Origin: Candidatus Methylomirabilota bacterium
Lineage (GTDB): Bacteria > Methylomirabilota > Methylomirabilia > Rokubacteriales > CSP1-6
Length of the DNA stretch: 55,228 nucleotides
Assembly: GCA_035259825.1 (NCBI GenBank)
Contig: DATFWA010000296.1
Location: 1 to 55,228 of the forward strand
Reading direction: 5' to 3'
The position numbers and the translations under genes are program-made. The stretch's first letter is position 1. Each line of letters opens with the position of its first letter. Below the pieces are notes generated by a model, which searched no databases, was not told where the DNA came from, and saw only the letters and a list, made by a program, of their open reading frames with translations. This document shows, one piece after another, positions 11,398 to 12,474 of the stretch.

Positions 11398-12474
11398 ATG
11401 GACACCCGACTGATCGATCCCCGGACCGGCAAGCAGATCCGTCTCACCGCCTACGCGGCCTGCGCGGGCTGAGCGTCCAAAATGGGTCCTGGAGATCTCC
11501 AGGACGTGCTCGGTGACCTGCGGCACGAAGAGCACGCCGACCTGCTCGTCGGGCTCGGCCGGAGCGACGATGCCGCGGTCTACCGCGTGACCGATGACGT
11601 GGCGATCGTGGAGACCGTCGACTTCTTCCCGCCCATCGTCGACGAACCGTATTGCTTCGGCGCGATCGCCGCCGCCAACTCGATGTCCGACGTCTACGCC
11701 ATGGGCGGTCAAGTCCTCTTCGCCCTCAACGTGGCCGGCTTCCCGCGAGATCTGCCGAAGGACATCATCGCCGCGGTCTTTCGCGGCGGCGCCGACAAGG
11801 TGCGCGAGGCGGGTGGCATCATCGCGGGCGGCCATACGGTGGTGGATGCCGAGCCCAAGTACGGCCTCTGCGTGACCGGCCGCGTGGATCCGCGCCGCAT
11901 CCTGATCAAGGGCGGCCTGCGCCCGGGGCAGCGTGTGTTCCTCTCCAAGCCGCTCGGCACCGGCGTGATCACGACCGCGGCCAAGAACGACAAGACCGAC
12001 GCGCAGACGCTGGAGGGCGCCGTCGCGAGCATGCTGCGTCTCAACCGGGTGGCGGCCGAGGTCGCCCAGCAGACGGCGGCGAACGGTGCTACCGACATCA
12101 CCGGATTCGGCCTGCTCGGGCATGCGGGGGAGATGGTAGAGGCGTCAGGCGCCGGGATCGAGTTCCGCGCGGGCGATCTGCCGGTCCTGACGGGGGCGCT
12201 GCCGCTGGCGCAGGCCGGCGTGTTCAGCGGCGGGATGGGACGGAACCGGAGCCATCTCGATGAGGCCTTCGGAGCCCGCGGGCGATTCCACGTCGGGTCC
12301 GGGGTGCCCGAGGCGCTCGTCAAGCTGCTGTGCGAGTCCGAGACGTCGGGCGGGCTGCTGTTCGCAGTAGAGGCTCAGCGCGCGCCGGAGGTCTCCGAGG
12401 CGTTCGCGAAAGCGGGTGAGGCGGTGTGGGAGGTCGGTACGGTCACCGCGGAGGCGCGGCTCGCGATCGTCTAG
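11398..12474 (+). CDS. selD: selenide, water dikinase (selenophosphate synthetase) SelD, selenocysteine-containing; TGA 11470-11472 read as Sec
   Basis: The track ORF starts at 11482 (MGPGDLQDVL...). Same-frame upstream reading gives MDTRLIDPRTGKQIRLTAYAACAG-TGA-ASKMGPGDL. This aligns by eye with E. coli SelD [20 protein letters not shown], with Cys17 matching TGA and Lys20 matching K. The body contains DDAAVY, DFFPPIVDEPY and GGHT. Confidence 0.85.
11486..11505 (+). promoter_or_regulatory. candidate bacterial SECIS hairpin for the selD UGA
   Basis: GTCCTGGA-GATC-TCCAGGAC, a perfect 8-bp stem with a 4-nt loop, beginning 13 nt after the TGA. Confidence 0.55.

Follow-up and report, generated by a model that had tools for sequence, protein, structure and literature searches.

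The selD locus

The stretch of DNA considered here, which we call the window, comprises 55,228 nucleotides (positions 1 to 55,228 of the forward strand of contig DATFWA010000296.1) from the assembly GCA_035259825.1 of a Candidatus Methylomirabilota bacterium, an uncultured soil bacterium belonging to the Rokubacteria. As judged from its sequence, the window holds one intact selD gene (11398-12474), predicted to encode selenophosphate synthetase, in which the codon for the catalytic residue is an in-frame UGA. This UGA is almost certainly read as selenocysteine (Sec) by the standard bacterial route, which depends on a selenocysteine insertion sequence (SECIS) hairpin in the messenger. An earlier model-made interpretation of the letters and of a list of open reading frames (ORFs), referred to below as the sequence-only reading, had placed the start codon at ATG 11398, the TGA at 11470-11472, a further ATG at 11482 and a hairpin at 11486-11505, and all of these positions were confirmed. 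It had also pointed out that the ORF list truncates the gene; the mechanical list does start the frame at 11482 (11482..12474, 330 aa) and thereby removes the catalytic N-terminal loop.

Translated from ATG 11398 with the TGA written as U, the product has 358 aa and reads MDTRLIDPRTGKQIRLTAYAACAG-U-ASKMGPGDLQDVL.... From 11398 back to the stop of the preceding gene at 11360 there is no in-frame start codon, and in the alignment of relatives the conservation of the orthologues starts exactly at Met 11398, the sequence upstream of it not being conserved. The remainder of the selD frame is intact with normal codon bias. On the antisense strand, the ORF 11287..12123 shows the signature of a shadow frame, with G+C high at the first codon position (GC1) and lower at the third (GC3).

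The 358-aa product scores 346.4 bits against the SelD equivalog model TIGR00476 (cut-off 125), with residues 15-328 covering profile positions 1-310 of 311, and 303.9 bits against NF002098 (cut-off 299). Both Pfam domains of the family were found in it, AIRS (PF00586) at 82.3 bits and AIRS_C (PF02769) at 76.2 bits. Since the TIGR00476 match begins at profile position 1, the 5' extension belongs to the SelD family model, which is the outcome that the sequence-only reading had anticipated for the extended product. The best match among solved structures, obtained with phmmer, was Escherichia coli SelD (3u0o, E = 5e-59, residues 12-349). This alignment starts with residue 12 of the query against residue 4 of the chain and sets U25 opposite Cys17 and K28 opposite Lys20, so that the two catalytic equivalences proposed earlier hold.

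Conservation of the UGA codon

SelD was searched for in 40 related genomes of the same genus, family and order. Exactly one in-frame TGA is present in each of the 35 orthologues from these genomes, at the same place throughout, and their alignments begin at query residues 1-13, that is, upstream of the TGA. Inspection of 29 orthologues from other genomes showed the TGA within the motif ...AG-*-A[SC]K....

A scan of public data, restricted to one genome per species, added another 80 loci under the names Candidatus Rokubacteria/Rokuibacteriota, Methylomirabilota, NC10, Chloroflexota and a small number of others. Among these 80 public orthologues the catalytic codon is TGA in 77 and a Cys codon in two, with one not resolved. 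The two Cys-for-Sec orthologues (L101 and L114) come from metagenome-assembled genomes of Dehalococcoidia. At a catalytic position, the exchange of UGA with Cys and with no other residue is the classical mark of a Sec codon.

The predicted SECIS hairpin

The hairpin GTCCTGGA-GATC-TCCAGGAC is a perfect 20-nt palindrome that starts 13 nt past the TGA. According to the bacterial SECIS (bSECIS) model of Zhang and Gladyshev, as summarised in PMC13188914, such an element has an apical loop of 3-9 nt, an upper stem of 4-16 bp, a G at loop position 1 or 2, a UGA-to-loop distance of 16-37 nt and a folding energy of <= -7.5 kcal/mol. The selD hairpin falls within every one of these limits, with a loop of 4 nt, a stem of 8 bp, a G at the first loop position, a spacing of 21 nt and an energy of -12.7 kcal/mol, as good as which none of 200 shuffles proved; the sequence-only reading, which had taken this stem-loop for a SECIS, agrees with the published model. 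Over the whole window a perfect 8-bp hairpin at SECIS spacing follows 1.7% of the TGA trinucleotides of the + strand, and at that chance rate the hairpin alone is modest evidence.

Codon choice within the hairpin was examined as well. Under the codon usage of the genome, the synonymous encodings of GPGDLQD that form all 8 pairs hold 4.5e-4 of the probability mass, and the codons used are rare within their families (GGT 8%, CCT 4.5%, GGA 8%; GAT 22%). Across 18 close orthologues, of which 17 are from the same genus (80-91% identical) and one from another genus of the family (70%), a single codon is used at five of the six degenerate hairpin codons, against a background of 19% of the degenerate codons for invariant residues.

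The pairing itself was followed in 59 distinct Rokubacteria-type sequences. It is kept in 95.8% of cells, as compared with 37-55% in slid controls, and neither the observed pairing nor the covariation score was reached by any of 500 shuffles. Compensatory changes occur at three pairs, the basal one going from G-C to C-G, another from U-A to C-G and a third again from G-C to C-G, and seven cells of the alignment are G·U. Two of the compensatory events carry an amino-acid change, one turning Gly30/Asp36 into Ala30/Glu36 and the other turning Gln35 into Arg together with a synonymous change at Pro31. Stem covariation accompanied by residue replacement shows how, in a single stretch of 20 nucleotides, the structure of the RNA and the sequence of the protein limit one another.

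Other clades carry hairpins of their own at the same UGA (loci L027-L036 and L083-L113). In one family of the order (f4) the hairpin is GGGCCRGA-GGA-UCUGGCCC, with its register shifted by 1.5 nt; a single structure for the order-level alignment was rejected on account of this shift, and the clades were therefore analysed separately. No covariation signal was found within f4 alone. The Chloroflexi hairpin, GGCGCAG-GUN-CUGCGCC, begins 29 nt after the UGA. A scan of the whole window against Rfam returned no family at gathering score, so no curated RNA model covers the selD SECIS.

Selenocysteine machinery and further UGA-containing genes

The genome assembly (G000) has 70% G+C; its 3.2 Mb are divided among 304 contigs, and its completeness is 63.5%. 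The genes selA and selB, both of which the sequence-only reading had called for, lie side by side on one short contig and score above their family cut-offs (Table 1). ARAGORN detected nine tRNA genes and no tRNA-Sec gene (selC) in this assembly; with so few tRNA genes in a genome 63.5% complete, that absence is uninformative. The sole match to RF01852 in it (38.9 bits, cut-off 47) is a tRNA-Leu(TAA). Among relatives, tRNA-SeC genes of 69-77 bits were found in 8 of the 12 same-genus genomes searched and in all 8 of the same-order genomes. Four of them, two from the same genus and two from the same order, were checked with ARAGORN, the closest relative (G002, SelD identity 91%) being included, and each has the anticodon TCA.

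TGA is the stop codon of 59% of 1,475 long, well-biased ORFs of the genome. As TGA is the main stop, UGA is not globally reassigned and the recoding is site-specific. In a genome-wide screen, each in-frame TGA was scored for coding potential on both sides by codon log-odds trained on the genome's own long ORFs, and family models were then run over the read-through products. Outside the window this gave about eleven more genes with a TGA that fall in known selenoprotein families, which bears out the expectation of the sequence-only reading that other UGA-interrupted genes would occur. In each of these genes (lower part of Table 1) the TGA is the U of the family motif or lies inside the domain match. 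For a genome just 63% complete this is a rich selenoproteome. Very large predicted selenoproteomes are already on record for Methylomirabilota (PMC13188914).

Many candidates of the TGA screen were adjacent genes in the same frame that passed the coding filter, for example on C156 and C46, and these were not counted as selenoproteins. The same applies to a candidate on the reverse-complement strand of C23 (offset 17850, ORF 12051-12878), which by eye reads as an adjacent soxY-soxZ-like pair. Within the window no second convincing in-frame TGA candidate was found.

Table 1. Coordinates of selD and its neighbours in the window and of genes for selenocysteine use elsewhere in the assembly (C followed by a number denotes a contig)
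Feature	Location	Strand	Evidence or remarks
selD, selenide,water dikinase, predicted Sec at codon 25	11398..12474	+	ATG 11398, TAG 12472-12474, 358 aa
UGA codon, U25, equivalent to E. coli SelD Cys17	11470..11472	+	in-frame TGA, alignment and conservation
internal Met29 codon, mistaken start	11482..11484	+	ATG 9 nt after TGA
predicted bacterial SECIS hairpin, 8-bp stem 11486-11493 with 11498-11505, GAUC loop 11494-11497	11486..11505	+	fold, covariation
selenium metabolism-associated LysR-family regulator	10404..11360	+	NF040786 313.8 bits, cut-off 250; ends 37 nt before selD
zf-HC2 (anti-sigma-factor-type) ORF, ~100 aa, zinc finger N-terminal	12499-12804	-	PF13490, E = 1.5e-10
family-4 glycosyltransferase, downstream of selD	12820-13950	+	best match NF038229 GPMC-system GT4 347.9 bits, cut-off 400
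selA and selB, adjacent	G000:C271:952-4217 (4,956-bp contig; loci L001, L002)	-	TIGR00474 578.9 bits; TIGR00475 366.1 bits
UGSC family (seleno)proteins, three genes	C58:894-1505, C269:7584-8108, C220:2623-3201		NF041046 139-161 bits, cut-off 125
SelT/SelW/SelH CxxU protein	C125:4104-4328		TIGR02174 49 bits, cut-off 34.2
rhodanese 'LYCAU' (seleno)protein, motif LVLYCAU	C1:12013-12717		below cut-off
ResA-like WAxxUGC protein, motif WATWUGC	C78:2589-3734		below cut-off
TlpA/ResA-like, WATWUPDC	C266:1400-2020		domain match spans TGA
AhpC/TSA peroxiredoxin (Prx-like TxxU), FTGTUTKE	C266:2023-2571		domain match spans TGA
AhpC/TSA or thioredoxin-like (UxxC), FWTYGUYNC	C189:9096-9635		domain match spans TGA
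DsbA-like (UPWC), FSDYVUPWC	C67:5719-6336		PF01323, 120.7 bits
CMD/AhpD-like (CxxU), CARU	C209:521-1060		weak

Assessment of the selenocysteine assignment and of alternatives

The UGA-to-Sec recoding put forward by the sequence-only reading is supported by the alignment, by the conservation of the codon, by the hairpin and by the presence of selA and selB. Several observations weigh against it, and to the missing selC of the assembly described above must be added three that concern the hairpin. It is almost invariant within the genus, its covariation stemming from a small number of events among less close relatives; its stem also encodes conserved residues, so that part of the stem conservation is protein-level; and its GAUC loop is without the G[G/U] dinucleotide of the most frequent pattern of the model. 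Whether the sequence at 11486-11505 acts as RNA at all deserves consideration, as the perfect palindrome is identical on both strands, contains AGATCT and GATC and has a regulator gene adjoining it, all of which would suit a LysR operator or a methylation or restriction site working as DNA. The site is nevertheless inside coding sequence at a fixed SECIS spacing from a conserved UGA, and in relatives the pairing persists although its sequence and register differ. The seven G·U pairs preserve a helix in the sense-strand RNA while breaking the palindrome in the DNA, which favours the former, and compensatory changes are not expected of a sequence-specific operator. A function of the palindrome as DNA is highly unlikely.

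Three further explanations concern the codon itself. If the UGA were the true stop of a 24-codon upstream ORF, functional SelD would be made from Met29, and ATG 11482, 9 nt past the TGA, does open a frame of 330 aa that the public gene calls (15 listed cluster members) have adopted. But the SelD model is matched from its first position by the 24 upstream codons, which encode the catalytic loop and whose protein sequence is conserved in over 100 orthologues; at the position of Met29, order-level relatives and several Chloroflexi have Leu, Ile, Ala or Arg and hence no start codon, and Cys replaces the TGA in two orthologues. E. coli SelD deprived of Cys/Sec17 and Lys20 is catalytically dead, which also speaks against a start at Met29, and we consider such a start extremely unlikely. 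The fragmented and incomplete state of the source, a metagenome-assembled genome of 304 contigs, invites the suspicion that the TGA arose by nonsense mutation or through an error of sequencing or assembly, the gene being a pseudogene or the codon in truth TGC or TGT; with the same TGA at the same codon in 35/35 relatives and 77/80 public orthologues from independent assemblies, and in a frame otherwise intact and normally biased, the chance of this is close to nil. Finally, UGA might be read as a standard amino acid, through a genome-wide reassignment to Trp or Gly or through near-cognate read-through. The inserted residue cannot be identified by sequence alone, and tRNA-Sec is not in the organism's own (63.5%-complete) assembly. 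Against this, TGA ends 59% of long ORFs, and global reassignment was rejected on that ground; the site is a catalytic Cys/Sec position at which Cys is the sole alternative residue seen; selA and selB are present, with tRNA-SeC in congeners; and the other in-frame TGAs of the genome stand exactly on the U of UGSC, CxxU, LYCAU and WAxxUGC. We judge decoding as a standard amino acid to be exceedingly improbable.

Under the preferred assignment, the catalytic residue in the N-terminal glycine-rich loop would be selenocysteine, encoded by the UGA at 11470-11472, and the mRNA hairpin at 11486-11505 would serve as a bacterial SECIS situated inside the coding sequence. SelB·GTP·Sec-tRNA(Sec) would bind the hairpin and, competing with release factor 2 for the UGA in the ribosomal A site, would bring Sec to that codon. 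Translation would then proceed in frame through the hairpin, which also codes for G-P-G-D-L-Q-D. Both the binding of SelB to the selD hairpin and the insertion of Sec at U25 are inferred here.

Comparison with known SelD proteins and SECIS elements

Haemophilus influenzae SelD is another Sec-containing bacterial selenophosphate synthetase. The Sec-type SelD of Aquifex aeolicus (PDB 2yye/2zod) resembles the window SelD in belonging to TIGR00476 and in its AIRS/AIRS_C fold. In SelD of the Aquifex type as in the window SelD, the Sec, which in the latter is predicted, is located in the glycine-rich loop at the Cys17 position, a Lys follows three residues on, and a stem-loop within the coding sequence comes after the in-frame UGA. 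The Aquifex loop GCAAKVGPGDLQEIL closely resembles the loop GUASKMGPGDLQDVL of the window SelD. There is no difference in kind between them; what differs is the lineage, here Candidatus Rokubacteria / Methylomirabilota, and in the window SelD a 14-residue N-terminal extension precedes the region of the SelD model, which starts at residue 15. E. coli SelD (3u0o) is an orthologue in which both catalytic positions, Cys17 and Lys20, align; it differs in having Cys (TGC) and no SECIS, and in having Cys19 where the window SelD has Ser27.

The predicted SECIS of the window pairs through 8 bp without a bulge and is closed by a GAUC loop. It observes the structural constraints of the bSECIS consensus, with a loop that begins with G followed by A in place of the most common G[G/U]. 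The SECIS of E. coli fdhF has a bulged nucleotide, whereas the window hairpin is without such a bulge. With respect to the fusion proteins of TIGR04369 ('oxidoreductase/SelD-related fusion protein'), the window gene is a stand-alone, true SelD that reaches 153 bits against a cut-off of 700. All defining features of a Sec-type SelD that can be examined in sequence were found in the window gene, selC in its own assembly apart. The finding of a Sec-type selD is correct but ordinary, being one more case of a well-described pattern that is already known; SelD is the second-largest prokaryotic selenoprotein family (PMC13188914).

Gene models and annotation

The 330-aa model from Met29 is a gene-calling artefact that loses the catalytic Sec and Lys. 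In the public cluster at 90% identity (31 members; JGI/IMG, ENA and Logan), 14 of the 15 members listed have 330 aa and one has 332 aa; among these 15 gene calls the truncation at Met29 is systematic. The sequence-only reading had made its case depend on relatives, and these keep the upstream peptide, the TGA and the hairpin. Order-level relatives have Leu or Ile (codons CTC, ATC or TTG) at the equivalent of Met 11482, so that in them the short gene model lacks a start codon.

The practical value of the result is mainly one of annotation, because the public calls examined give a SelD without its catalytic Sec and Lys. About eleven other selenoprotein genes of the same genome are cut or split by gene callers in like manner. 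In metabolic and functional reconstructions of Rokubacteria that are built on such calls, selenium use will be under-counted and redox enzymes will be mis-described. The Sec-type selD also serves as a marker of a selenoprotein-rich genome.

Genomic neighbourhood and a SelD-like paralogue

Directly upstream of selD lies the gene of the LysR-family regulator, whose start is uncertain, the NF040786 match beginning at residue 23. The regulator occupies this position in most Rokubacteria-type loci, and since the arrangement is kept there and the two genes are on the same strand, they are probably co-transcribed; the LysR-type regulator may also control selD.

A 745-aa paralogue of the TIGR04369 type, in which an NADH-dehydrogenase-like part is fused to a SelD-like C-terminal half, is present in most same-genus genomes (e.g. 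L125 976-3213 (-) in G002). It has Cys at the Sec position, within the motif CGG-C-AAK, and no UGA. It was not found in the incomplete assembly of the organism itself. NADH-dehydrogenase-like/SelD fusions of this kind have been described (PMC4561486).

Taken together, the lysR(Se)-selD pair, the UGA with its SECIS and the AUG three codons past the UGA could form a candidate two-level selenium-responsive circuit, an idea to which we attach a low probability. Transcription might be set by LysR, and active SelD might be translated only with the help of what it itself produces, by way of Sec-tRNA(Sec). The first selenophosphate, starting the loop, might come from the Cys-type fusion paralogue. Under selenium shortage, ribosomes might terminate at the UGA, perhaps re-initiating at Met29, and leave inactive protein only. 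A general role of re-initiation is made less likely by the lack of conservation of the AUG in order-level relatives.

The gap of ~350 nt between selD and the downstream glycosyltransferase gene contains the small zf-HC2 ORF, which has no adjoining sigma-factor gene. A selenoneine cluster (SenB/SenC) was considered for this region and rejected, as the glycosyltransferase reaches 96.6 bits against the SenB model TIGR04348 (cut-off 300) and so falls far under the score required. The glycosyltransferase gene beside selD is syntenic in 37 related loci.

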